Origin: Patescibacteria group bacterium
GTDB taxonomy: Bacteria > Patescibacteriota > Patescibacteriia > UBA9934 > GWF2-40-263
Length of the DNA: 64,000 nucleotides
Direction: 5' to 3'
Assembly (NCBI GenBank): GCA_041661745.1
Contig: JBAZTR010000003.1
Location: 11,965 to 75,964 of the forward strand
Numbering within the stretch: the first letter of the stretch is position 1; each line of letters starts with the position of its first letter. This document shows positions 5,809-47,385 of the stretch, one piece after another. The notes beneath the pieces were generated by a model. The model saw only the letters and a list, made by a program, of their open reading frames with translations. It searched no databases and was not told the DNA's origin. The translations under genes and the position numbers were made by a program.

Positions 5809-6612
5809 TTATTTTTTAAACAATAACGAAAACAACTTTAACCAATCGTTCGGGGTCAAATTTTCCGCTCTGGATTTTTCGTCCAAAGCGATTTTTTTAA
5901 GAGTTTCTTTGGCTTTTTCTGAGGAACAGACTTTGGTCTTAGCTAAATTGCCATGCAATTGTTTTCGACGAGAGGAAAAGCCAGCTTTCACAATTTTTAA
6001 AACCTCTTCCGGATCAATACCACCCAACCGTTCGGTTCTTAGGTCTAATCGAACCACAGTGGAATCAACTTTCGGCGGTGGATTAAAGGCGCCGCGCTTA
6101 ACTTGCATCATTTTTTTGCCTTCAGCATACAGCTGACAAGCAATGGAAAGAACACTGGTCTTGGGCGGAACCGCCAACAAACGATCGGCGACTTCGCGCT
6201 GAACCATTAAGGTTAAACGCTTTGGCCGCGGTTTGACAGTAAATAACTTTTCCAAAATCGGCGAAGTAATGTTGTATGGAATGTTGGCAACAACAGAATA
6301 ATCTTTATTAATAACACGACGGAGTTCTTTCCAAACTTCGTCAGACAAAATATCACCGTAAACTAACCTCACCCCGTCCCTCTCCTTCGTAAGGAGAGGG
6401 AGAATTCGTTGCAATGGTTCAATTAGATCTTTGTCGGCTTCCACGGCCACAACCTTGGCCCCGGCCTCAAGCAAGGCCGTTGTCAAACTTCCCCGCCCCG
6501 GGCCTATTTCTAATATCAAATCGCCGGCCTTAACGCCGGCCGCTTCAACAATTTTACGGACAATATTTTTGTCCGTAAGAAAATTCTGCCCAAAAGATTT
6601 TTTGGCTCTCAT
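5809..6612 (-). CDS. rsmA: 16S rRNA (adenine1518/1519-N6)-dimethyltransferase RsmA/KsgA
   Basis: SFGQNFL and LEIGPGRGSLT motifs; NIPYNITSPIL. Contains an in-frame GC-rich palindrome (see repeat 6367-6401). Confidence 0.9.
   Translation of the reverse strand: MRAKKSFGQNFLTDKNIVRKIVEAAGVKAGDLILEIGPGRGSLTTALLEAGAKVVAVEADKDLIEPLQRILPLLTKERDGVRLVYGDILSDEVWKELRRVINKDYSVVANIPYNITSPILEKLFTVKPRPKRLTLMVQREVADRLLAVPPKTSVLSIACQLYAEGKKMMQVKRGAFNPPPKVDSTVVRLDLRTERLGGIDPEEVLKIVKAGFSSRRKQLHGNLAKTKVCSSEKAKETLKKIALDEKSRAENLTPNDWLKLFSLLFKK
6367..6401. repeat. GC-rich palindromic mini-element inside ksgA: CCTCACCCC GT CCCTCTCCTT cgt AAGGAGAGGG (10-bp stem, 3-nt loop)
   Basis: Perfect inverted repeat 6378-6387 / 6391-6400. 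Near-identical copy in opposite orientation in valS (24849-24883). Translates in-frame as ILPLLTKERDGVR. Confidence 0.75.
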
Positions 6613-11500: not shown

Positions 11501-11516
11501 GGCTGGCTAAAAACCT

Positions 11517-11548
11517 ACAAGCTACTTCCTACCTCCTACAAGCTAGTA
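11517..11548. repeat. 7-nt-periodic CTAC repeat (CTACAAG CTACTTC CTACCTC CTACAAG CTAG) in the groEL 3' UTR
   Basis: Related copies at 17803-17835 (inverted) and 17884-17908. Overlaps the groEL stop codon. Confidence 0.6.
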
Positions 11549-13513: not shown

Positions 13514-14788
13514 TCAACTATTAATTTGCTGGTTAGTGGGCTTGGAGATAACCACCAAAACCACGGCCACTAGGGCCAAACCAGCCCACTGGCTCCAAAG
13601 ATAATGATCAAAGACACCGAGAACAGCAAGAGAAACAAGGGGACTAAGGGACGGGAGAGACTGAAGAGACTGGCCGGAAAAAAGTACCCACAAAAAATAG
13701 ATTAAAAAAACCAAACCCAATAAACCAGTCTCAGCAAAGAAAAGAAGGTAGGAATTGTGCATTGGTTGATACGACCAGACCGGTTGGCCGGGATAAAGTT
13801 TTTCTAAAGCTAGAGTGTAGGCACCTGGACCAACACCGACAAACGGATTTGTTTTTATTACTTCGCCGATCATGTGATACTCACTCTGCCGTTCCGTTAA
13901 CGATTGTTCTTCCAAACGATCGGCCGCGGCCACGCGAGTAAAAACCGCGTCGGAAAATAGGGCAAGCGGAGCGGCCGCGGCCAAAATGACAATAATCAAA
14001 CCAAGTAAAAATTTTTGCGGTATTTTTTTTCTGGAAATAACACTGCTGACAAAAAAGAAAATTATTCCGACAATCAAAGCCAACCAGGCCGAACGGGAAA
14101 ATGTCACTACCAAAGTTGATGACAATAAAACCAGGATCGCCACAAGAGCTGGCCGCTTTGAAAATCGTAACAAAATCATCATCACGACCACGGCCAAATA
14201 TCCACCAAAAATATTCGGGTGGGCGAAAGTGCCATAGGCCCGCATCAAACGCTCGCCAATTACTTCAACCACCGAGGTGCCGGGCGTTGCCGCCAAATGT
14301 TCGGCTAAACCGAACAGGGTCGAAGCCGGACTGACACCAACAAAAACTTGCCACCAACCAATAAGACTCGGCACAATCAGCCCAAGCGAAAAAAACCAAA
14401 TAATTTTTCTAGTCTCGATTCGTTCATCAAGCAAAAGCCAAAACAAAAGCAGGGCGGAAAAAAGATGAAAAAGAAAAGCCCCGGACAAATAAAAATTTAT
14501 TGATAAAAAAGAAACAAAAACCGTGGCCGCAAAAAACAACCAAAGGGTGGCCATTATTTTTTTAGTCGTCTCGTTCTTCTTCGCTTCCCATCTCAACAAA
14601 ACAGCAACAACAATTAAGGCTTGAACAGCATAATGGGTCATCTTACCGTACTCCCACCCTTCCCCGCCGAAGGTTCCGAGCCCGGTCGAGGAGTTAAGGG
14701 TCAGTGAATTATAAATCCACACTGTCTGCCACGGCAGAAGAAACAAACAAAGATAGGTTAAAAAATTAGCTAGCTCCGTACGCTTCAT
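13514..14788 (-). CDS. O-antigen ligase/polymerase family (Wzy_C-like) polytopic membrane protein
   Basis: At least 10 TM segments; FSRSAWLALIVG motif typical of the O-antigen ligase domain. Confidence 0.7.
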   Translation of the reverse strand: MKRTELANFLTYLCLFLLPWQTVWIYNSLTLNSSTGLGTFGGEGWEYGKMTHYAVQALIVVAVLLRWEAKKNETTKKIMATLWLFFAATVFVSFLSINFYLSGAFLFHLFSALLLFWLLLDERIETRKIIWFFSLGLIVPSLIGWWQVFVGVSPASTLFGLAEHLAATPGTSVVEVIGERLMRAYGTFAHPNIFGGYLAVVVMMILLRFSKRPALVAILVLLSSTLVVTFSRSAWLALIVGIIFFFVSSVISRKKIPQKFLLGLIIVILAAAAPLALFSDAVFTRVAAADRLEEQSLTERQSEYHMIGEVIKTNPFVGVGPGAYTLALEKLYPGQPVWSYQPMHNSYLLFFAETGLLGLVFLIYFLWVLFSGQSLQSLPSLSPLVSLAVLGVFDHYLWSQWAGLALVAVVLVVISKPTNQQINS

Positions 14789-15719
14789 AAATTTTTTTCC
14801 ATTCGTCGCGAAAATGGGCGCGACGGTCGTTTAGATGAAATTTAAGAACACTGTCAGAAACAACAACTCGCGAATCTAGATTAGCCGCGTTTTTTATTGG
14901 TTCGGGGAGAAACTTTTGCTGAAAACGTTTGGCTAGGGTTTCGAGAAAATCCCCCACCCCTTTTCGCCACGTCTGGTGGGGCGACCTTCCCCTCCCCCGG
15001 GGTTGGGAGGGGACCAGAAATGCATTTGGTAAAAAATTAAAAGCCCAGTTATTTTTTTCGTTAAGACGGTTTTGAATTTCATCGCGATCAAAAACCGGAA
15101 CAAGCGAAGCTAGCCAATAAGCCATGTACGGATCCCCTTCGGACAAAAGAAGATCTTTTAAAGATAAATTTTCGTCAGTAACAAAAAAGGAAAAACAGAA
15201 CGGATCAACGGTTGTTTGCTTCGGTCGACGGCCGAGCAGACGGAATGGTGTCACCAGCAAAAGCCGGGTTAGCCAAATTGTCCCTGGCGAAACAACAATA
15301 AACAAATCAATATCACTTTCCGGTGCCGTGTGATGCCAGGCTAAAGTATTGCAAGCAAAAACCGCCCGGACAAAAGGGAAAAAAGAAAAATATTTAGCCG
15401 CCCACCCAAGTTTTTTAAACTTGCGGGCCGCATCCAAAAAACGTTCCTGATGAGTGGCAATAATACCTTCAGCTGAACGGCCGCCCAAAACGAATAAACC
15501 TTCTTTGGCCTCCAGTCGACCACGAAGCCAAAGGCTGGTTCGCAGAGTTTCCTCAACTTCGGCAAATGAACTTTTTACTCCCAACCACTTCCAGATATCA
15601 AAGGCAGTTAAGGGATAATCAAAAAGCGAAAACCAAGCCACGGTTTTGACGATGCCGGCTTCTAGAACTGATGGTTTGACCTGATCCATACGCAGGTATC
15701 TTATCACGCCCAAAATCAA
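14766..15719 (-). CDS. Hypothetical protein with a nucleotidyltransferase-like DIDLFIVV motif
   Basis: 317 aa. Carries the in-frame GC-rich palindromic insert at 14951-15014, encoding ..SQPRGRGRSPHQTWRKGVGDF.. Confidence 0.45.
   Translation of the reverse strand: MILGVIRYLRMDQVKPSVLEAGIVKTVAWFSLFDYPLTAFDIWKWLGVKSSFAEVEETLRTSLWLRGRLEAKEGLFVLGGRSAEGIIATHQERFLDAARKFKKLGWAAKYFSFFPFVRAVFACNTLAWHHTAPESDIDLFIVVSPGTIWLTRLLLVTPFRLLGRRPKQTTVDPFCFSFFVTDENLSLKDLLLSEGDPYMAYWLASLVPVFDRDEIQNRLNEKNNWAFNFLPNAFLVPSQPRGRGRSPHQTWRKGVGDFLETLAKRFQQKFLPEPIKNAANLDSRVVVSDSVLKFHLNDRRAHFRDEWKKIYEAYGAS
14951..15014. repeat. GC-rich double-hairpin element inside a coding sequence (CCCCACC..GGTGGGG and CCCCTCCC ccggggtt GGGAGGGG)
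   Basis: Far more G+C-rich than the surrounding gene. The reading frame is maintained. Confidence 0.65.
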
Positions 15720-15764: not shown

Positions 15765-16505
15765 TTATTTTGTTTCGGCAACGGCAACTGTTTCAACCTT
15801 TTTTTTCTTAAAAGCCAAAGCTTGTTGCAGAATGGCAAAGAGGTTCATGATAATCCAGTAAAGAGTGAGACCGCCAGGCAATGTTGCCCCAATAACCACA
15901 GTCATGACCGGCATAAAATACAACATTGATTTGTTCATTTGGGCCATCATGTCTTCGTCCTTGGCCCCGGGATCCTTACGAACAGACAACGGTGGACGCT
16001 TAGCCATTAACATTTTGGTCTGAATGAACTGCAGAATACCGGCCAAGATGGCCATGACAATGTACGGCTCGGCCAAATTGATAAAACCTAAAAAGTTTAA
16101 ATTAATTGATTCTGGCCGCGCGACAAATGAATACAGGTTAACCAAACTATCCATGTTCATGCCGTCGTTTAACACGCGATAAAGTGCCCACAAAATCGGC
16201 AACTGAATCAGCAAAGGCAAACAAGACGACATTGGATTAACCTTTTCTTCTTTATACAAATTCATCATGGCTTTGGCCAAGGCTTCTTTATTGTCCTTAT
16301 ACTCAACCTTTAAAGCTTCAAGTTTTGGCTGAAGATCTTGCAAGGCTTTTTGTGACTTGATTGAGGTCCGTGACAATGGCCATAGTGCCAATCTGACCAA
16401 AAGAGAAATGCCAATAATGGCAAAGCCCAAGTCCTGACCAGGAATGACATTATAAAGCCAAATCAGCAGGTTAAAGAGCGGTTGGTATAAAATTGTATGA
16501 AACAT
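15765..16505 (-). CDS. yidC: Membrane protein insertase YidC/Oxa1 (short form)
   Basis: 246 aa, 5 TM segments; N-terminus MFHTILYQPLFNLLIWLYN typical of short YidC. Confidence 0.85.
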   Translation of the reverse strand: MFHTILYQPLFNLLIWLYNVIPGQDLGFAIIGISLLVRLALWPLSRTSIKSQKALQDLQPKLEALKVEYKDNKEALAKAMMNLYKEEKVNPMSSCLPLLIQLPILWALYRVLNDGMNMDSLVNLYSFVARPESINLNFLGFINLAEPYIVMAILAGILQFIQTKMLMAKRPPLSVRKDPGAKDEDMMAQMNKSMLYFMPVMTVVIGATLPGGLTLYWIIMNLFAILQQALAFKKKKVETVAVAETK

Positions 16506-17795: not shown

Positions 17796-17802
17796 AATAT
17801 TT

Positions 17803-17908
17803 AGCTTGTAGCTGGTAGGAGGTAGCTGGTAGGTCAGGATCTATTTTAGAGTCCGCCTACAAGGCCAGCTAAGCTGGCCAAGCTACAAGCTACTTCCTAC
17901 AAGCTGTA
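17803..17908. repeat. Inverted pair of CTAC-periodic repeats (17803-17835 and 17884-17908) forming a long imperfect hairpin in the nusA 5' leader
   Basis: AGCTTGTAG at 17803 is the exact complement of CTACAAGCT at 17889. Same family as 11517-11548. Confidence 0.6.
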
Positions 17909-21112: not shown

Positions 21113-22822
21113 TCACATTTCCTCAATTGTTTCAATCCCCATCATCGACAGGCCGTTTTTTAAGACCGTGCCTACTGCCTCGACCAAACCAAGCCGAGCG
21201 GCCGCGGTTTCCTTATCTTCGGCCTGAGTGACCGGAACATCATGATAAAAAGTGGCAAAGGTTTTCGCCAAGTCAAACAAATATTCAGCCAAACGGTCTA
21301 GTTTAAAGTCTTGGGCAGTCGCTGAAACGGTTTCCGGATATTTTGCCAATTTTACAAGCAGCTGATTTTCGATCGGCAGAACCAATCTTTTGGTTTCAAT
21401 CTTCGCTGTTAATCGACCGGCCTTCTTTATAATCGAACGAGATCGGGCATAGGTGTAAAGAAGATACGGACCGGTATAACCATCAAATGATAAGGCCTCG
21501 GCCATGTCGAAAATTATTTTTTTATTCGGATCTTGACGCAACATGCCAAAGCGCATGGCCGCAAAGGCAATGGCCCGAGCCACTTCCTCAATTTTTTTAT
21601 CTTTCCATTCAGAGTGTCGTTTTTTTGTTTCCTTTCGTGCCGAGTCAATCATGATGTCACGAAAAGTTTCGTAACGAATAATATTTCCCTTTCGCGATGA
21701 CATGACCCCTTCCTTAAGCGTGACAAAATCGTAGGACAGGTGAACCAACTCGCGTTTGAAACCCATTCGCTTTAAGGTGGCAAACAGTTGTTTCATGGCC
21801 AGGGACTGACGGGTATCAATCACGTAAACACTCTTTTCCGGATGATATTCTTCCTCCTTGCGAAAGGCGAGGGGAATATCTTTAGCGTTGTACAAAAGCA
21901 TGCCGTCGGATTTAACCAACAGATTGGCCCCCAAACCCTCTTCAGACAAATCAACAATCAAAGCTCCCTGACTTTTAACGGCTATTCCCTTCTTTTCCAA
22001 ATCAGCAATAATTTTTCTGGCCGGTCTAATTAATTCTGATTCGAAATACCAAACTTTAATTGGCAGACCAAGTTCGGAAAAAACTTTCTTTAAATCATTA
22101 ACCGACCATTTCCTGGTTTTTTTCCATAAGGCCACTGATTCACCTTTCCCGGCTTCGAGCTCGTGAAAAATTTTGGAAATTTCTTCCTTAACTTTAGGAT
22201 TTTTTTCTTCGGCCTTGGTGGCTTCAGTGTAGACCTTGCCCAAAAACGAGGTAGCATCTTCTTCTTTTAAATCATAATCACCGTAAAACTTTTTTAGACC
22301 CCAAACACATTTGGCCACATGTGTCCCCAAATCATTAATGTAAGAAGCTGGAATAACTTCATGACCAACGGCCTGTAAAAGATTTATTGCAGTCTGCCCG
22401 ACAAAAAAGTTTCGTAGATGCCCGACATGAACTTCTTTGTGCGTGTTGGGATTGGCATATTCAACCATGACTCGAGTATTCCGGCCGTCTTTGGCAAAGC
22501 CGTATTTTTCGCCTTCACTTTTAATGTCTTCCAAAACCGCCTTGCCAAAAGTTTCGCTCTTTAAAAAGAAATTGACATACGGTCCCTTGGCCTCAGCTTT
22601 TTTGATCCAGCCCTTAGGTTCAACTTTGGCCGCCAATTCCCGAGCAATATCGGCCGGGTTCTTTTTCAGTCCCTTAGCCAAGGTAAAACACGGGTAAGCA
22701 AAATCACCCAAAGCCGTATCCGGCGGGCTTTCCAAATCGTTAGTTATCGGCGAGTACTCTTTACCAAGAGCCGTTTTTAACGATTTAATTATTTCTTGTT
22801 TAGCTTTTGATAACGCGGACAT
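21113..22822 (-). CDS. argS: Arginine--tRNA ligase
   Basis: HVGHLRN (HIGH), MSSRKG (KMSKS-like), N-terminal Arg-tRNA-binding domain. Confidence 0.9.
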   Translation of the reverse strand: MSALSKAKQEIIKSLKTALGKEYSPITNDLESPPDTALGDFAYPCFTLAKGLKKNPADIARELAAKVEPKGWIKKAEAKGPYVNFFLKSETFGKAVLEDIKSEGEKYGFAKDGRNTRVMVEYANPNTHKEVHVGHLRNFFVGQTAINLLQAVGHEVIPASYINDLGTHVAKCVWGLKKFYGDYDLKEEDATSFLGKVYTEATKAEEKNPKVKEEISKIFHELEAGKGESVALWKKTRKWSVNDLKKVFSELGLPIKVWYFESELIRPARKIIADLEKKGIAVKSQGALIVDLSEEGLGANLLVKSDGMLLYNAKDIPLAFRKEEEYHPEKSVYVIDTRQSLAMKQLFATLKRMGFKRELVHLSYDFVTLKEGVMSSRKGNIIRYETFRDIMIDSARKETKKRHSEWKDKKIEEVARAIAFAAMRFGMLRQDPNKKIIFDMAEALSFDGYTGPYLLYTYARSRSIIKKAGRLTAKIETKRLVLPIENQLLVKLAKYPETVSATAQDFKLDRLAEYLFDLAKTFATFYHDVPVTQAEDKETAAARLGLVEAVGTVLKNGLSMMGIETIEEM

Positions 22823-22830
22823 ATTTACGA

Positions 22831-22880
22831 AGGGGTCTTGAAGGGTTAAGAAGGGTTTGGAGGGGCTTTAAAGGGATTGG
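22831..22880. repeat. Five tandem 10-bp units (AGGGGTCTTG AAGGGTTAAG AAGGGTTTGG AGGGGCTTTA AAGGGATTGG) filling the tyrS-argS spacer (argS 5' leader)
   Basis: Seen directly in the sequence. On the mRNA strand the units read as pyrimidine-rich YNNRNCCCYU. Confidence 0.8.
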
Positions 22881-22883
22881 AAA

Positions 22884-24074
22884 TTATCGAACTACTCTAA
22901 CAAATCCACGCTTGCCTTTTTGTACCACGATTCCTTTCGGCACGACAAAGTCATAAGATTTAACGACTTCCCCATCAACCTTAACCCCGCCACCATCAAT
23001 TAAACGGCGAGCCTCGCCTTTGGAAGCAGCTAACTTGGTTTCCACAAGGACATCGATAACATTCATTGAACCAGAAATTTTAACTTCCGAAATTTCCTCG
23101 GGGATTTCTTTGTCGCGGAACATTTTATCGAAATTGGCTTGTGCCTCGGTTGCAGCTTTTTCAGAATGAAAAATTTTGACCACTTCAAAAGCCAAACGAG
23201 CTTTTTGATCGCGCGGATTGGCCATTTCTTTTTTTAATGCGGTAATTTCTTCCGAAGCTACGTCGGTAATTAACTCGAAACCTCCGTCGATCATTTCATC
23301 TGGCCAACTCATGATTTTGCCAAACATTTCATCAGCTGAATCCATGAGGGTAATCATGTTGCCTTCGCTCTTCCCCATCTTCTTACCAGTCGGATCGGTC
23401 AGAAGTTTCATAGTCATGACAAACTTTTCTTTTTTCTTCAAAATCTTCATCAAATCCCGCCCGGCCAACATGTTGAAAGTCTGATCGTTCCCGCCGATTT
23501 CACCATCGACATCCATTGCCACAGAATCGTAAGCTTGCATTAAAGGATACAAAAATTCATGAAGATGAATCGGTTTGCCTTCGGACATGCGTTTTTGAAA
23601 CATGTCGCGCTCAAGCATTTGTTGAACTGTAAAGTTGGAGGCCAATCCGACCACATCAACAAAGGACATTTTGGCCAACCATTTGCTATTAAACTTAATA
23701 ATGGCCGAATTTTTTCCAGAAAAAGAAATAAATTTCGAAGCTTGTTTTTTGTACAACTTACAATTAGCCAAAACTTGTTTTCTGGTAAGCATTTGGCGCG
23801 TGGCCGACTTGTCGGTAGGGTCGCCGATCGTGCCGGTAAAATCACCAATAAGAAGAACGACTTTGTGGCCAAGCTCTTGAAACAACTTAAGCTTGCGCAA
23901 GTTAATGGCGTGTCCCAAGTGAAGGGTTGGGCCGGTCGGATCGATACCAAGATATAAAGTCAGCGGCTCTTTACCCATTAATTTGGCACGGAGAAAATCG
24001 GCTGTGGGATAAACATTTTCCACGCCGCGAGTTAGAAGCTGATTTATTTTATTTTGGTCATGGATAGGTTTCAT
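22884..24074 (-). CDS. tyrS: Tyrosine--tRNA ligase
   Basis: LYLGIDPTGPTLHLGHA (HIGH), KMGKS, C-terminal S4 domain. Confidence 0.9.
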   Translation of the reverse strand: MKPIHDQNKINQLLTRGVENVYPTADFLRAKLMGKEPLTLYLGIDPTGPTLHLGHAINLRKLKLFQELGHKVVLLIGDFTGTIGDPTDKSATRQMLTRKQVLANCKLYKKQASKFISFSGKNSAIIKFNSKWLAKMSFVDVVGLASNFTVQQMLERDMFQKRMSEGKPIHLHEFLYPLMQAYDSVAMDVDGEIGGNDQTFNMLAGRDLMKILKKKEKFVMTMKLLTDPTGKKMGKSEGNMITLMDSADEMFGKIMSWPDEMIDGGFELITDVASEEITALKKEMANPRDQKARLAFEVVKIFHSEKAATEAQANFDKMFRDKEIPEEISEVKISGSMNVIDVLVETKLAASKGEARRLIDGGGVKVDGEVVKSYDFVVPKGIVVQKGKRGFVRVVR

Positions 24075-26722
24075 AGAGTGGAAATTTGTTGGTTCAAGGC
24101 TTCGGCTTTTTTGGCCGCCTCGTCCCGTTTTTGTTTCATGTCCTCGACTACTTTAGCCGGGGCTTTGGAAATAAATTCCTGGTTGGCAAGTTTGCCATCG
24201 AGACTGACAATATATTTTTTGGCTTCTTCAAGTTCAACAGACAAACGTTCGCGCTCTTTACCGGCGTCAATTTGACGATCAACTTTAAATTGATAATCAA
24301 ACGAGCCGTCTTTATTTTCCTCAATCACGAGATTTTCCACGCGCGACAAAGTTTTGATAATTTCAAGATTAATTTCGTCTTTAAAAATTTCAAAATATTC
24401 GCCAACAATAAGGGTCACATTAATTTTTTCTTTTGGTTCAACCTTGTTCTCGGCACGCCAGTTACGAAGTTTCTCGATTATTTCTCTCAAGCGTTCAAAT
24501 TCGGTATTGTTTTGTTTTGAAACCTTTACCTCCGGCCAATCATGAACAATCAACATTTTATCTGAGCCAAAATTGCTCCAAAGCTCTTCGGTCACAAACG
24601 GCATGAATGGATGCCACAAAACCAAAACTTGTTCCAAAACGTAAAGAAGAATCTCGTCGGTATTTTTCTCGAGTTTGGAATCCTTTCGTTGAATCTTGGC
24701 GATTTCCAAATACCAATCAGCCAATTCGCTCCAAGTAAAATCACGAAGAACTTCACCAGCTTGCGAGAACTCATATTTTTCCAAGTGATTGGTAACTTTT
24801 TCCGTCACCTCGGACAAACGACCAAGAATCCAATTATCGGCTAGTGTCATTGGGTTCGCCCTCTCCCTGAGGGAGAGGGTTGGGGTGAGGGATGTGGTTG
24901 TCAAAACAAAACGTGAAATGTTCCACAACTTATTTGTAAAGTTACGGAAGCCGGCAATCTTCTCTTCGTACATTTTGAAGTCATTGCCCGGACTGGTACC
25001 AATAACCATCGAAAGTCGCACTGCGTCAGCTCCGTACTTTTCAACCATCTCAATGGGGTCAATAGCATTGCCGGCTGACTTTGACATCTTCTTCCCGGCT
25101 TCGTCGCGAACAAGGCCGTGCAAATAAACATTTTTAAACGGTACTTCGCCAAGAGTGTAAGTGGTCATGAGAATCATGCGGGCGACCCAAAAGAAAATAA
25201 TGTCATAACCGGTCTCGAGGACAGTGGTCGGATGATACATTTCAAAATCTTCGGTCTTGTTCGGCCAACCGAGAGTGGAGAAAGTCCATAGGCCAGAAGA
25301 AAACCAAGTGTCGAGAGTATCCTCGTCGCGTTTCCAATCGTCACCAGGCGCTTCTGAACCAATATTAATTTCGTCGCCGCGATACCAAACCGGCACTTGA
25401 TGCCCAAACCAAATCTGACGACTAATATTCCAATCACGCAAGTTATCAATCCAATGAAAATACGTGCCGACGAATTGTTCGGGAATAATTTTTATCTGAT
25501 TAGAACACACCACGTGCTGCATTAGCTCTTTCAAAGTAATTTCCTGATCATCTTTCAAACCTTCGATCGGCGCGTGTTTCGAAGCGTGGAACTTGAACGG
25601 TTTATTTACACCAATAAACCATTGAAGTTTAGGTAACGGTTCAACCGCTGCACCACAACGATAACAAACCGAAAGATTTTGCGGCGTTTCTTCTTCTTTT
25701 TCAATCAACCCCTCGTTTCGCAGTTGCTCAATAATTTTTTCTCGGGCTTCAAGGACCGACAAACCAGCAAAAGCTCCGGCTTCGGCAGTCATAACGCCGT
25801 CTTCCCCGATCACAGTTATAACTGGCAAATTATTTTTCTGTGCCATCTCGGCGTCGATTTGACTGTGAGCCGGGGTAACCCCAAGCGCGCCGGTTCCGAA
25901 AGCCGGATCAACAGCTGAATCGGCAATAACTTTTATGGAAAGTTTTTGACCAACAAAATTCGCTTCAAGTGTTTGCCCGATAAATTTCTGGTAATGTTCA
26001 TCATCAGGATGAACAGCCACGGCCGTATCACCAAGTTTAGTTTCCGGACGTGTTGTAGAAATGGAGATTGGAAAATTTTTGTCGTATTTAAAAGTATAAA
26101 ACTTGGCAGTTGTTTCCTTGTGTTCCACTTCATCATCAGCCAAAGTTGATTTGCAACGCGGGCACCAGTTGATAACGCGGTGACCACGGTAAATCAAACC
26201 ATCGTCATACATCATTTTAAAAACTGTGTTGACAGCTTTGTTTCGGTCTTCGTCCAAAGTGTAACACTCACGCGACCAGTCGAGCGAAGCCCCCATTTTT
26301 TTAATTTGATGAACAATGGTGTCGTGCGAGGCCGCGGCAAACTTTTTTACTTCTTCAAGAAAAGCTTCACGCCCAAGTTCGCGGCGCGGATCTTTCATGC
26401 CTTTTTTAATAAGTTCTTTTTCAACCTTGGTTTGAGTGGCAATAGCCGCATGATCAGTGCCAGGAATCCAAAGAGCCCGTTTTCCCTGCATGCGAGCAAA
26501 ACGAGTCATGGTGTCCTCTAGGGCCAACATTGAAGCGTGACCCAGGTGAAGAATACCGGTGACATTAGGCGGTGGCAGAACCATGGAAAAAGTTTCTTTG
26601 CGCTTTTCAAGATCAGGCAGGTTTTCCGGACGAAAAAAACCGCTCTTTTCCCAAGCGGCATAAATATTGTCCTCATGATTTTGCGGCTCGTAAGCCTTGG
26701 GGAGGTCTGGTTGATTGGGCAT
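24071..26722 (-). CDS. valS: Valine--tRNA ligase
   Basis: PPNVTGILHLGHA, KMSKSAGN, editing domain, C-terminal coiled coil. 4-nt overlap with tyrS. Confidence 0.95.
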   Translation of the reverse strand: MPNQPDLPKAYEPQNHEDNIYAAWEKSGFFRPENLPDLEKRKETFSMVLPPPNVTGILHLGHASMLALEDTMTRFARMQGKRALWIPGTDHAAIATQTKVEKELIKKGMKDPRRELGREAFLEEVKKFAAASHDTIVHQIKKMGASLDWSRECYTLDEDRNKAVNTVFKMMYDDGLIYRGHRVINWCPRCKSTLADDEVEHKETTAKFYTFKYDKNFPISISTTRPETKLGDTAVAVHPDDEHYQKFIGQTLEANFVGQKLSIKVIADSAVDPAFGTGALGVTPAHSQIDAEMAQKNNLPVITVIGEDGVMTAEAGAFAGLSVLEAREKIIEQLRNEGLIEKEEETPQNLSVCYRCGAAVEPLPKLQWFIGVNKPFKFHASKHAPIEGLKDDQEITLKELMQHVVCSNQIKIIPEQFVGTYFHWIDNLRDWNISRQIWFGHQVPVWYRGDEINIGSEAPGDDWKRDEDTLDTWFSSGLWTFSTLGWPNKTEDFEMYHPTTVLETGYDIIFFWVARMILMTTYTLGEVPFKNVYLHGLVRDEAGKKMSKSAGNAIDPIEMVEKYGADAVRLSMVIGTSPGNDFKMYEEKIAGFRNFTNKLWNISRFVLTTTSLTPTLSLRERANPMTLADNWILGRLSEVTEKVTNHLEKYEFSQAGEVLRDFTWSELADWYLEIAKIQRKDSKLEKNTDEILLYVLEQVLVLWHPFMPFVTEELWSNFGSDKMLIVHDWPEVKVSKQNNTEFERLREIIEKLRNWRAENKVEPKEKINVTLIVGEYFEIFKDEINLEIIKTLSRVENLVIEENKDGSFDYQFKVDRQIDAGKERERLSVELEEAKKYIVSLDGKLANQEFISKAPAKVVEDMKQKRDEAAKKAEALNQQISTL
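24849..24883. repeat. GC-rich palindromic mini-element inside valS (CCCTCTCCC tga GGGAGAGGG TTGGGGTGAGGGA), same family as 6367-6401 but in opposite orientation
   Basis: Encodes SLTPTLSLRERA in-frame within a variable linker. Confidence 0.75.
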
Positions 26723-44222: not shown

Positions 44223-47111
44223 TTAAACCTTAATAAAACCAACGGTTATATCGCACTCGTTAAGACGAAAGGCCTCACAAATTTCCGGGCGTTCGCCAGT
44301 TGTACGGAGATTGTTGGCTAAAGTGCCAACACGAATCGTCTCCCCATATTCTTCAATCATTTTCTGAGCCTCGACTTCAGCACTTTCGAAATAAATTTCA
44401 ATGCGATCTTCGATGGTCAATTTATTATTCTTACGCATTTCGTTAATGCGACGAACCAGGTCGCGAGCCATGCCTTCACGAAGCAATTCTGGCGTAAGAT
44501 TAACATCGAGCTCAACGTTGTACTCGCCTTTTTCAACAATCACGGCTTTTACATTAACTTCGTCTTTAATGATTTCAATAAGTTCGGCATCCAACTCCCC
44601 TTCTGGCAACCATACAGTGGCTGAAGCGAGTGGTTGGCGCACCGGTCGGCCGGTTTCAGCCCGGGCTTCCAAAATTTTGGAAACGACTGAACGAGCACGA
44701 GCCATGCGCTCCAAAAGTTTTTCATCAATTAATGCGACGTCAGCCGTCGGCCAATCATCAAGATGAACCGAAGCCTTGCCCCCTTGAAGTCGCAAGTAAA
44801 TAGCGTCAGACAAAAACGGAGTAAACGGGGCCATGAGTTTGGTAATGCCAAGCAAACATTCACGCAAGGTGAAAATAGCCGCGGCTTTGTCAGCTTCGTC
44901 CGATCCTTTAAAGCGATCGCGACTGCGGCGGACAAACCAGGTTGAAAGATCATTGATAAAATCAGCAATGGCCCGTACCGGTTCGGTCACTTTATAATTT
45001 TCCAACTGTTCGGTTGAATCTTTTATTAATTGATTCAGGCGAGATAGAACCCAACGATCCAAAACATTTTCCTTCTCTTTTTCTCCCTTTATTTCCCTTT
45101 CCTTCCCTTCATAGAGTTCGTAAAAAGTCATGATGTTCCAAAGGATCATGAAAACTTTCTTAATCATTTCATCGAGCGATTTCAAATCAAACCGTTTGGA
45201 ATCACCAGGCTGATTAATGGAATACATGTACCAGCGCACGGAATCAGCTCCGTATTTATTTATGGTCTCGACCGGATCAACAACGTTGCCGATGGACTTA
45301 GACATTTTCTTTCCTTGAGCATCAAGAACGTGTCCCAAACAAATGACATTTTTGTAAGGACGTTCTTTGCCAAGCAAGGTGGCCACAGCGAGCAGAGTGT
45401 AAAACCAACCGCGGGTTTGATCGATAGCCTCGGAAATATAATCAGCCGGATAGGCTGTCGCTTGCCCCTCGGAGCCCGGCGAAGTGGGGTCGATCTTTTC
45501 TTTATTCTCGAAAGGATAATGCCATTGAGCGAAAGGCATACAACCGGAATCAAACCATACGTCGCAGACTTCCGGGATGCGTTTCATTTGTTCGCCACAG
45601 CTGTCGCATTTAATCAAAACATCATCAACAAAAGGACGATGCGGATCAAACGGCTCGGCCATAGGTGTGACTGCCTTGGCTTTCAATTCTTCAAAACTTC
45701 CAATGCAAGTTTTTTGGCCGCAGGAACAGGTCCAAATCGGCAGTGGTGTACCCCAGTAACGCTCACGGGAAAAGGCCCAGTCCTTAACTTCACGCAGCCA
45801 TTCACCAAAACGACCTTCCTTAATATAATCAGGCTCCCAATGAATGTTTTCGTTTCCTTCAATCAGTTTATCGCGCAAAGAACTCATTTTGATATACCAA
45901 GAAAACTTGGCCAGATAGAGGAGCGGGGCTTTGCAACGCCAACAGAAAGGATAGGTATGACGATAAGTTTCTTCTTTATATAACAAACCGCGATCCAATA
46001 AATCTTTTTTAATATCTTCGTCGGCCTTTTTCATGAACTTACCAAAGCCCGGTGACTTTTCCGAACTAACCATGCCGGTTTGATCAACAGTAAAAATAAC
46101 TGGCAATTTTTCCGCGTCACCTAAACGTGAGTCATCCTCACCATAAGCCGGAGCAATATGAACAATTCCCGAACCATCGGTCGTGGAAACGAAATCAGCG
46201 GTGTAAACTTTGTAAGCTTTTTCTTTTTCTCGTCCGGGGGTGTCGTAATAGGTTTCGTAGAGCGGAACATATTTCATTCCAACCAATTCTGATCCGTTTT
46301 TCTCCCACACGGTTTCAAAAGATTCACTAACTTTTCCAAGTAGTCCGCTGGCTAAAATAAATTTTTCACCATTAGCCAACTTAATCTGTGAATATGAAAT
46401 ATTTTCACCAATAGCCAAAGCTACGTTACTCGGCAAGGTCCACGGAGTGGTGGTCCAAACTAAAAAGTAGCTATTCTCTTCCCCTTCAATTTTAAACTTA
46501 ATGTAAACCGACTGGTCATCGACCTCTTTGTATCCTTGAGCCAACTCGTGTGAAGACAAAGTTGTTACACAACGTGGACAATGTGGCACGACTTTATAAT
46601 CTTGATACAAAAGATCCTTGTCCCAAATCTGTTTAATGATCCACCACAACGACTCGACGTATTCGGAATGATAAGTGACGTACGGTTTGTCGAGGTCAAG
46701 CCAGAAAGCGATGCGCTTGGTAATTTTTTGCCAATCCTCAAGATACTTCCAAACACTTTCGCGACATTTTTTGTTGAATGGTTCAATGCCAAAATTTTCA
46801 ATGTCTTTCTTACCGGAAAAACCAAGTTGCTTTTCAACTTCAATTTCCACCGGCAAACCATGGGTGTCCCAGCCAGCCTTGCGATCGACTAAATACCCTT
46901 GCATGGTGCGGAAACGCAAAAGGCAATCTTTAAAAGCGCGCGACTCGACGTGGTGAATGCCGGGTTTACCATTGGCAGTAGGAGGCCCTTCAAAAAAAAC
47001 AAAACGGCCTTTGGGGGCAGCCTTGGCCAGGGTTTGTTCAAAAATCTTTTCTTTCTCCCAGTTTTCCAGGAGTTGTTCCTCGATTTGAGGAAAATTTGGT
47101 CTATCGGACAT
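44223..47111 (-). CDS. ileS: Isoleucine--tRNA ligase
   Basis: PPTANGKPGIHHV (HIGH region), KMSKSIGN, editing domain. 962 aa. Confidence 0.95.
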   Translation of the reverse strand: MSDRPNFPQIEEQLLENWEKEKIFEQTLAKAAPKGRFVFFEGPPTANGKPGIHHVESRAFKDCLLRFRTMQGYLVDRKAGWDTHGLPVEIEVEKQLGFSGKKDIENFGIEPFNKKCRESVWKYLEDWQKITKRIAFWLDLDKPYVTYHSEYVESLWWIIKQIWDKDLLYQDYKVVPHCPRCVTTLSSHELAQGYKEVDDQSVYIKFKIEGEENSYFLVWTTTPWTLPSNVALAIGENISYSQIKLANGEKFILASGLLGKVSESFETVWEKNGSELVGMKYVPLYETYYDTPGREKEKAYKVYTADFVSTTDGSGIVHIAPAYGEDDSRLGDAEKLPVIFTVDQTGMVSSEKSPGFGKFMKKADEDIKKDLLDRGLLYKEETYRHTYPFCWRCKAPLLYLAKFSWYIKMSSLRDKLIEGNENIHWEPDYIKEGRFGEWLREVKDWAFSRERYWGTPLPIWTCSCGQKTCIGSFEELKAKAVTPMAEPFDPHRPFVDDVLIKCDSCGEQMKRIPEVCDVWFDSGCMPFAQWHYPFENKEKIDPTSPGSEGQATAYPADYISEAIDQTRGWFYTLLAVATLLGKERPYKNVICLGHVLDAQGKKMSKSIGNVVDPVETINKYGADSVRWYMYSINQPGDSKRFDLKSLDEMIKKVFMILWNIMTFYELYEGKEREIKGEKEKENVLDRWVLSRLNQLIKDSTEQLENYKVTEPVRAIADFINDLSTWFVRRSRDRFKGSDEADKAAAIFTLRECLLGITKLMAPFTPFLSDAIYLRLQGGKASVHLDDWPTADVALIDEKLLERMARARSVVSKILEARAETGRPVRQPLASATVWLPEGELDAELIEIIKDEVNVKAVIVEKGEYNVELDVNLTPELLREGMARDLVRRINEMRKNNKLTIEDRIEIYFESAEVEAQKMIEEYGETIRVGTLANNLRTTGERPEICEAFRLNECDITVGFIKV

Positions 47112-47218
47112 ATTGTGTTAGGGAAAGGGAGTTAAAGGGAAAGAAAGGGAGGGAACGGGAGGGAAAGAAGATAAAATTTCCTTCTCTTTAATTCCCTTTT
47201 CATCTCTTTCCTTCTCTT
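47112..47218. repeat. Polypurine (GGGAAAGGGAGTTAAAGGGAAAGAAAGGGAGGGAACGGGAGGGAAAGAAG) / polypyrimidine (TTCCTTCTCTTTAATTCCCTTTTCATCTCTTTCCTTCTCTTC) mirror repeat in the ileS leader
   Basis: Seen directly in the sequence. Potential long imperfect hairpin or H-DNA. No T-box motifs seen. Confidence 0.6.
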
Positions 47219-47385
47219 CTAAAAACTGGGCAAATAATAACATTTATAGGCAAAAATGACAAATTTGTGAGATAAAAAACCGCGTGGCCGTGAAGCCATG
47301 CGGGAGGGGAGGGTGGATGCGAGAGTGTCCAAGGTCCAAGGAACCAAGAGCCATGCCAAGGGCAGAGGGCCAAAGAATCCCAGGG

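Follow-up and report, generated by a model that had tools for sequence, protein, structure and literature searches.

Short repeats of the BoxC type are the closest described systems to the element treated here. They were first named BoxC in the 1990s and then PIT elements in 2000, and under the name TM_ECO they have been given the pattern CCCTCNCCC N3-6 GGGNGAGGG N3 GGGNGAGGG, with 3610 occurrences in 262 proteobacterial genomes (Holder et al. 2015, PMC4666352). Its location in E. coli K-12 is given as "always intergenic". The isolated E. coli strand folds in vitro into a stable intrastrand triplex, as seen by circular dichroism and nuclear magnetic resonance; polymerases are unaffected in vivo, the element was tied to local genomic instability, deletions and rearrangements, and its function and spread were left without explanation by the authors (PMC4666352). 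The G-rich part has also been described as a G-quadruplex-hairpin-duplex switch, and a regulatory role was proposed for the HPG1 and HPG2 motifs of E. coli, which are all intergenic (Kaplan et al. 2016, PMC5100583). The subject here is a 33-bp element inside valS, the valine--tRNA ligase gene, in a stretch of 64,000 nucleotides from a Patescibacteria group bacterium (contig JBAZTR010000003.1), referred to as the window. With a probability of about 0.75, valS 24859-24891 is a solo BoxC/PIT/TM_ECO copy that is carried as a DNA-level passenger in a hypervariable linker and whose peptide has no function of its own.

The element is complete and fits the published pattern exactly at 24859..24891 in its G-rich reading on the plus strand. 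It consists of a C arm CCCTCTCCC (24859-24867), a TGA loop (24868-24870), a G arm GGGAGAGGG (24871-24879), a TTG spacer (24880-24882) and a third block GGGTGAGGG (24883-24891). The 33 bp can equally be written as a perfect 9-bp hairpin, CCCTCTCCC-TGA-GGGAGAGGG (24859-24879), followed by TT and then by the G-rich GGGGTGAGG (24882-24890). A preliminary description had placed a palindromic mini-element at 24849-24883, which is the right site but lies about 8 nt too far to the left and cuts the third block. The presence of a palindromic element in valS was confirmed in the sequence, with no pattern matches expected by chance. The full TM_ECO pattern, with 25 specified bases, has one match in the window (24859-24891) and none in 100 shuffles, and a looser hairpin pattern has two, in valS and in ksgA, with none expected. 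E. coli K-12 TMECO no. 17 is CCCTCTCCCTGAGGGAGAGGGTTAGGGTGAGGGG; the valS copy differs from it by 1 nt and shares its TGA loop and the TT of its spacer. Judged by its sequence, the valS element is a member of the BoxC/PIT/TM_ECO family of intrastrand-triplex repeats and not a new element; the preliminary description, which was right in seeing a palindromic DNA repeat, had missed that the repeat was already known. The G-rich block GGGGTGAGG alone, with one mismatch allowed, is not enriched in the window (12 matches against 9.5 expected), and therefore only the composite motif is meaningful. Rfam at gathering thresholds returned only tRNAs from the window, and a generic repeat finder did not return the element as a family there.

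The valS hairpin has a predicted DNA folding energy of -9.9/-10.0 kcal/mol (z -3.8/-4.6), with folding predicted for both strands, and the mRNA hairpin is predicted at -17.9 kcal/mol (z -2.0). The third block GGGTGAGGG mirrors the G arm GGGAGAGGG, a layout that would be capable of triplex formation, and 24871-24891 of the plus strand conforms to a canonical G-quadruplex motif, GGG-AGA-GGG-TT-GGGG-TGA-GGG. The unit of the family can be described as a 9-bp G/C hairpin and, after it, a third block in mirror relation to the G arm; three folds may be open to its single strand, namely a hairpin, an intrastrand purine-motif triplex and a G-quadruplex. Local G+C is 0.60 at the element and 0.44 for the whole gene. 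A miniature inverted-repeat transposable element was considered and rejected as an identity, there being no flanking direct repeat and the unit being a hairpin with a mirror block, not terminal repeats around a core.

The host gene valS (24071..26722, minus strand; NCBIfam NF004349, 989 bits) encodes 883 amino acids. The protein is 100% identical to the NCBI-named valine--tRNA ligase (ValRS) of a Patescibacteria group bacterium metagenome-assembled genome (MAG), the identical protein being on record on two contigs and from three sources, and it has 82% identity to relative P0002 over 100% coverage. The C-rich strand of the element is read in frame as 12 codons for S611-A622, SLTPTLSLRERA (24857..24892, minus strand), so that the coding strand carries CCCTCACCCC-AA-CCCTCTCCC-TCA-GGGAGAGGG. 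In the AlphaFold model (mean pLDDT, the model's per-residue confidence, 87.6) residues 610-626 are coil with helices 586-609 and 627-648 on either side, and block 611-620 has a pLDDT of 66, against 92 and 87 in the neighbouring blocks. The site aligns with the 13-aa linker LSREGFQAKEDTP of the T. thermophilus enzyme (chain 1gax_A, the closest relative in the Protein Data Bank). The model thus places the peptide in a low-confidence, permissive surface loop at the start of the anticodon-binding domain. An alignment of the linker between its anchors, as suggested in the preliminary description, agreed with a non-conserved peptide: among the best 120 ValRS homologs listed the stretch between ...NKLWNISRFVL and TLADxWIL is hypervariable in length and composition, and SLTPTLSLRERA is absent from the other 119.

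The element would on this evidence have overwritten a hypervariable surface linker between two helices. It would act at the DNA level as a passenger, in frame, its peptide SLTPTLSLRERA having no function of its own, and it would persist in valS because 12 added or substituted residues do no harm at this place and five of six frames are open. The open frames also limit what can be concluded from translation. It had been argued from the stop-free reading in both host genes that the element is tolerated; the reading is indeed stop-free, but five of the six frames of the constant parts are open, the single frame shut being closed by a TGA within GGGTGAGGG, so the lack of stop codons is weak evidence by itself.

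The same loop holds other members or variants of the family in related Patescibacteria. In L001 (ValRS identity 82%) a decayed copy, CCCCCTCCCC AG CCCTCTCCC ATAGT GGGAGGGAG, has the C-rich reading on the coding strand as in the window. L129 (76%) has the same orientation but a different perfect stem, CCTCTCCCCC AG CCCCTCCCC AAA GGGGAGGGG, in which CCCCTCCCC and GGGGAGGGG make up a compensated, perfectly complementary 9 bp at the valS site. The coding strand is G-rich, opposite to the window, in L124 (59%; CCCTCCCCTT ACCC AAGGGGAGGG TT GGGGTGGGG), and also G-rich in L126 (58%; CCCCCTCTT ACC AAGGGGGGG TTA GGGGGGG) and L127 (63%; a further variant); L125 (58%) has the G7 type of L126 in the C-rich orientation. 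The sequences in L002 (77%; (GGGGGTT)3) and in L003 and L130 (77% and 72%; a polypurine run coding for EGK-type peptides) are not motif copies. These alignments indicate that the same ValRS loop has been occupied repeatedly, in both orientations, across the Patescibacteria relatives. Linker length changes little, from 19 aa in the window to 18 aa in L003 and L130 and 16 aa in L129, and the element therefore overwrites the linker and is no simple addition to it. A clean insertion of 11-12 aa was ruled out by the alignments, which give a net change of at most +1 aa in ValRS and +6 aa in KsgA.

Further in-frame motif copies are found in Patescibacteria valS outside this loop, at L126:12165-12201 (about codon 721) and L002:2180-2220 (about codon 453), and ValRS seems to gather such elements. 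A paralogous class I synthetase with a KMSKS motif, probably IleRS (window 44223-47111, minus strand), has EGKEREIKGEKEKE in the loop that corresponds by homology to the valS site (45068-45110), coded by a polypurine run, and a similar polypurine-then-polypyrimidine stretch lies in the intergenic region just upstream of its gene (window 47134-47219). The polypurine runs of the probable IleRS and of ValRS in L003 and L130 may be a second repeat family that uses the same loops.

The variants in the valS loop bear on whether the element is a selected structural signal, either an mRNA hairpin that slows the ribosome at a domain boundary and so helps co-translational folding, or a DNA hairpin, G-quadruplex or triplex switch that tunes expression or replication. 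The mRNA hairpin is stable by prediction and falls precisely where the catalytic body gives way to the anticodon-binding helices, the fully complementary stem of L129 resembles compensation, and a regulatory G-quadruplex-hairpin-duplex switch was proposed for the E. coli copies (PMC5100583). However, the L129 stem is equally well explained by a swap to another family variant. In L124 and L126 the orientation at the site is reversed and the mRNA is G-rich instead of C-rich, the stem is decayed in L001, the polypurine of L003 and L130 is unrelated, and most homologs have no such structure. The same motif is moreover present in many unrelated genes and in intergenic DNA, and in published tests neither promoter nor terminator activity was seen, with polymerases unaffected in vivo (PMC4666352). 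Because of the opposite orientations, the decay and the absence in relatives, a regulatory role of the hairpin in valS is unlikely.

The relatives also speak to the integrity of the assembly. The motif is found in very many organisms and in viral contigs, which would give identical k-mers in a mixed sample, and a ubiquitous 33-mer could have led a metagenome assembly to a chimeric join or to a spurious insertion. Such an artefact is extremely improbable here: both flanks belong to one continuous in-frame valS open reading frame (ORF) with full-length homology to P0002, the identical protein comes from two contigs and three sources, and in independent assemblies of other samples the same codons hold related or decayed copies (L001, L129).

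A second copy of the element lies in frame in ksgA/rsmA (5809..6612, minus strand; NCBIfam TIGR00755, 244.8 bits), at 6365..6401 on the minus strand, with the G-rich reading on the coding strand, where it encodes ILPLLTKERDGVRLV. The coding strand reads CCCTCTCC-TTACGAA-GGAGAGGG-AC-GGGGTGAGG, which on the plus strand (6367-6400) is CCTCACCCC GT CCCTCTCC TTCGTAA GGAGAGGG. Its hairpin has 11 bp and a predicted DNA folding energy of -11 kcal/mol; relative to the TM_ECO pattern it has 8-nt blocks with one mismatched position in each block. The valS and ksgA copies are opposite with respect to their genes, as had been noted, the coding strand being C-rich in valS and G-rich in ksgA. An RNA G-quadruplex is therefore impossible in valS and possible in ksgA. 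KsgA with the element has a net gain of 6 aa over the canonical PLKEKFGDKIELIHGDIL. Variants derived from the motif, longer by a few residues net, are also seen in several KsgA relatives at 63-78% identity, and others, at 72-76% identity, have no motif.

A possible third copy, degenerate or composite, is located at 14952..15015 on the minus strand, in frame inside ORF 14766-15719, with the peptide PSQPRGRGRSPHQTWRKGVGD. It reads TCCCCTCCC-AACCCCGG-GGGAGGGGA, then 26 nt, then GGGGTGGGGG, and because it does not fit the published pattern its membership in the family is uncertain. In L130 a membrane protein of the Wzy_C family has a clear motif copy, NPSPLTPLPVGEGE, in its N-terminal loop (16180-16217); the window ortholog (ORF 13514-14788, minus strand) has G-rich DNA coding for GGEGWEYG at 14638-14671, which is possibly a decayed copy.

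The distribution outside the window was obtained by scanning one genome per species, 596 Gb in all, for CTCACCCCNNCCCTCTCC N3-9 GGAGAGGG, which has 24 specified bases. The motif was found in at least 120 stretches of representative genomes, where fewer than one match is expected in 596 Gb even at 70% G+C, as estimated from base composition. It was also found in at least 120 stretches of viral contigs (IMG/VR). The genome matches listed belong, by their record titles, to Alpha-, Beta- and Gammaproteobacteria, Desulfobacterota, Myxococcota, Bacteroidota, Verrucomicrobiota, Planctomycetota, Chloroflexota, Acidobacteriota, Nitrospirota, Armatimonadota, Omnitrophota, WOR-3, Calditrichota, Cyanobacteria and Melainabacteria, with one Bifidobacterium MAG. 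The consensus CCCTCACCCC-RR-CCCTCTCCC-loop-GGGAGAGGG is almost invariant across these matches and the flanks are unrelated, which points to one motif spread over many phyla in unrelated surroundings. Some of the viral or prophage stretches (L211-L330) hold two to four exact copies, and the IMG/VR matches may include host flanks of prophages. In Pseudomonas (L006:421-754 and L017:2786-2927) the motif recurs at a spacing of about 151 bp and 111 bp and is then followed by the conserved GGCCGACCGAGGTGTC..., and there the motif seems to belong to a longer unit repeated in tandem.

Exact copies within coding sequence are not restricted to the window. In the genome loci listed, 44 of 135 exact copies have at least 60 open codons to either side, a figure that may include spurious open stretches in genomes of high G+C. 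The convincing in-frame copies are those in hosts of low G+C and those with Pfam domains on both sides. They are found within the SWI2_SNF2 domain of HsdR, within the GLF domain of a UDP-galactopyranose mutase, in the linker after the Hpt domain of CheA, and as an inverted pair around a DUF559 domain in PriA (L080). The C-rich strand is read in two frames in these other proteins, giving LTPTLS... and PSPQPSP..., and LTPTLS..RE.. peptides in the same frame occur in unrelated CheA-like and UDP-galactopyranose mutase proteins. The use of two frames again speaks for the peptide as a by-product of the DNA. The earlier view that a DNA element is tolerated either way, as opposed to a conserved protein motif, thus holds up, with loop variants in both orientations and unrelated proteins carrying the same DNA.

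The scan also bears on how far the likeness between valS, ksgA and BoxC can be put down to convergence of G/C-rich sequence in a hypervariable, low-complexity linker. The ValRS linker does vary strongly among the best 120 homologs, it is not lengthened by the element, and nearby lineages hold other simple sequences, (GGGGGTT)3 and polypurine runs coding for EGK. Convergence is nevertheless strongly disfavoured and very improbable, considering that the pattern specifies 25 bases with no match expected in the window, that the scan pattern occurs in at least 120 stretches against an expectation below one, that the TGA loop and TT spacer agree with E. coli copy no. 17, and that the local G+C of 0.60 stands out from the 0.44 of the gene.

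The motif is statistically associated with genes of the DUF559 family. DUF559 is in Pfam a Vsr-like PD-(D/E)XK nuclease, and the E. coli member YcjD is classed as Vsr-like (PMC1189080). A reciprocal test that began at the gene, with 80 metagenomic DUF559 loci (L131-L210), gave a motif within 350 nt of the DUF559 gene in 59 loci and on both sides in 23. Motif density was 2.07 per kb near DUF559 (106 in 51 kb) and 0.03 per kb further off within these loci (3 in 118 kb). The motif-finder counts, those at the DUF559 loci included, are underestimates, as the greedy C/T arm took the first loop base and missed the valS copy. The arrangement is stereotyped: the upstream copy has the hairpin and then the G block, about 45-140 nt before the DUF559 domain, and the downstream copy has the C block and then the hairpin, 4-40 nt after it. 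A given DUF559 gene has one and the same motif variant on both flanks, and the variant differs from gene to gene. In the cases with an asymmetric G arm (n=18) the third block is its mirror in 11 and ties in 7, a direct copy being favoured in none, which fits a triplex-type architecture.

Four DUF559 ORFs were found by tblastn and hidden Markov model (HMM) search in the 120 genome loci listed; three adjoin the motif, and the fourth, a weak match in L027 (E 5e-6), is in an ORF that spans the motif. The 120 viral loci listed have only two, each with exact copies on both flanks, so that all six DUF559 ORFs of the motif-selected loci adjoin the motif or sit in an ORF spanning it. Individual loci with DUF559 and inverted motifs are L010:850-1500, L114:1230-1780, L244:175-701, L231:477-1043 and the E. 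coli K-12 ycjD region (L128). In the latter, ycjD ends ...RRSPSP* inside a degenerate hairpin, with TMECO no. 9 about 200 nt downstream. The last approximately 40 nt of ycjD (GGAGACGGTGCTGGAGAATATTC...CTGAACCG) are duplicated about 70 nt past the stop codon (L128:1530-2340), which looks like the remnant of a second or rearranged DUF559 copy. In a Gastranaerophilales MAG (L080:2380-2900) a complete motif-DUF559-motif unit lies in frame in priA with no stop codon, between the 3'-DNA-binding and helicase domains of PriA, and looks like an intein-less selfish insertion.

The best lead on the arrival of the valS copy is one in which the family would represent the inverted terminal repeats, together with solo or paired satellites, of small DUF559-encoding units. 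Copies may spread by nuclease-induced breaks and repair, or by an action in trans like that of REP repeats and their RAYT enzymes, after which selection would retain only copies placed between genes or, where a genome is gene-dense, within permissive protein loops. From the association with DUF559 we infer that such a nuclease propagates the motif, be it as element ends or as targets, and the valS copy would have arrived by a process of this type, followed by selection for harmless sites. More tentatively still, with a probability put somewhat below even, BoxC/PIT/TM_ECO would be the inverted terminal repeats and satellites of a widespread selfish DUF559 unit that crosses phyla, perhaps borne by phages, and that colonises genes in frame in gene-dense genomes such as those of Patescibacteria, rewriting permissive loops like the linkers of ValRS and KsgA.

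The motif copies may instead be targets and not ends, with homing-type DUF559 genes inserting into existing BoxC copies and the motifs themselves arising and spreading by replication slippage or template switching at triplex or hairpin DNA, or through another enzyme. Most copies are solo and distant from DUF559, the L080 repeats have the reverse arrangement around the gene, and motifs of this kind were tied to local deletions and rearrangements by Holder et al. (PMC4666352), all of which this alternative would accommodate. The variant that is matched on both flanks of a DUF559 gene and differs between genes, and the stereotyped layout with third blocks facing the gene, weigh against it, and the alternative is on the whole doubtful. 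Matched variants and stereotyped layout would fit element ends or a split, duplicated target alike, and the present data do not separate the two.

Several observations weigh against a passenger copy delivered by a DUF559 unit. There is no target-site duplication around the valS copy (...GGGTTCG / element / ATGTGGTT...), and with the linker length barely altered the element is unlike a simple insertion. The 64-kb window has only two clear copies, plus one doubtful. The valS copy is solo and not part of a DUF559-flanking unit: neither the window nor the fetched Patescibacteria loci contain DUF559 by tblastn or by HMM search in six frames. The protein profile search for DUF559 gave only Acinetobacter and E. 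coli among the best 120 listed and is therefore uninformative on Patescibacteria. Most motif copies lie far from DUF559, the gene being present in 4 of the 120 genome and 2 of the 120 viral loci listed, and the repeats of the L080 unit are arranged in reverse. In the published work TM_ECO gave no triplex signal in vivo and no promoter or terminator activity, and was not associated with phages, plasmids or transposons (PMC4666352). Nuclease activity of DUF559 on such motifs is not reported in the searchable literature, nor was a link of DUF559 or ycjD to BoxC or triplex repeats found there; most subscription journals were outside the search and an earlier description is possible. The follow-up literature on intrastrand triplex repeats gave no spreading mechanism.

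Two features of the surroundings can be added. The genes valS, tyrS and argS adjoin on the minus strand (window 21113-26722) with a 4-nt overlap of valS and tyrS, and this order, with bactofilin and diacylglycerol kinase genes next in line, is kept in L002, L124, L126 and L130, the related Patescibacteria loci that reach far enough to show it. A 33-nt inverted repeat pair ACCTACAAGCTACTTCCTACCTCCTACAAGCTA (11513-11545 and 17802-17834), with arms 88% complementary and 6.3 kb apart, is unrelated to the G/C-rich element.

By itself the valS copy is a modest result, a known repeat in a new phylum with a new in-frame habit. It extends an intergenic repeat of E. coli to Patescibacteria, where it can live in essential genes in either orientation, as Rickettsia palindromic elements (RPEs) do in Rickettsia. 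Repeat DNA is in this way a source of protein-loop variation in small genomes, the same loop being rewritten repeatedly, and it confounds alignments and gene trees. A 33-bp motif that is near-invariant across many phyla calls for an active spreading mechanism. The DUF559 association could be the part of greatest weight and is directly testable: it puts forward a concrete enzyme as a candidate for a family of repeats that earlier studies had left unexplained in function and mobility, and it provides a first functional hypothesis for a very large uncharacterised family that includes E. coli YcjD.

Compared with BoxC/PIT/TM_ECO, the valS element agrees with the pattern block for block, and across genomes the copies of the family are likewise dispersed with unrelated flanks and present in both orientations. 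It differs in lying in frame in essential genes of a Patescibacteria genome with 44-46% G+C. Both window copies are in frame within genes and depart from the intergenic habit of the E. coli copies, but intergenic location is a habit described in one species and no structural definition. A further difference from the published account (PMC4666352) is that at least 120 IMG/VR contigs carry the motif and that it also flanks DUF559 genes. The G-rich part of valS, GGGAGAGGG-TT-GGGGTGAGGG, merges features of HPG1 (GGGAGAGGGTTAGGGTGAGGG) and HPG2 (GGGAGAGGGCCGGGGTGAGGG), with four G tracts, short loops and a C-rich 5' partner in common; it differs in that the valS mRNA bears the C-rich strand.

In architecture the motif and DUF559 resemble the system of repetitive extragenic palindromic (REP) sequences, their paired forms (REPINs) and the REP-associated tyrosine transposases (RAYTs). 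REPs and REPINs are short hairpins, solo or paired, of which a few flank a single-copy nuclease-type gene in inverted orientation, with variants that co-vary with the gene; RAYTs are relatives of HUH/Y1 transposases, and REPs are extragenic and lineage-specific. DUF559, which and not a RAYT is the gene seen beside family members elsewhere, is in contrast a Vsr-like PD-(D/E)XK nuclease, and its motif is near-constant across phyla. Vsr-fold nucleases are capable of selfish homing, as in the EDxHD homing endonucleases such as I-Bth0305I, which reside within group I introns and have extra DNA-binding domains. The motif-DUF559-motif unit in PriA of L080 acts like a free-standing selfish insertion and is similar in this respect. 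The DUF559 units differ in being about 100-120 aa long with hairpin repeats at both ends.

RPEs are about 100-150 bp long, restricted to Rickettsia and made up of sequence families of their own; they are palindromic repeats that reside in frame in the genes of a reduced genome and are tolerated at the protein surface, the peptide being a by-product. The element in valS was set apart from them by size and taxon. RPE identity was rejected on the 33-bp size, the Patescibacteria host and the spread across phyla, to which the hairpin with a mirror block can be added as a difference, and the two are probably unrelated in sequence. The RPE-like reading of the preliminary description is accordingly retained as an analogy and not as an identity. 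What the two have in common is behaviour, namely in-frame residence in coding genes, in a segment that is exposed at the surface.

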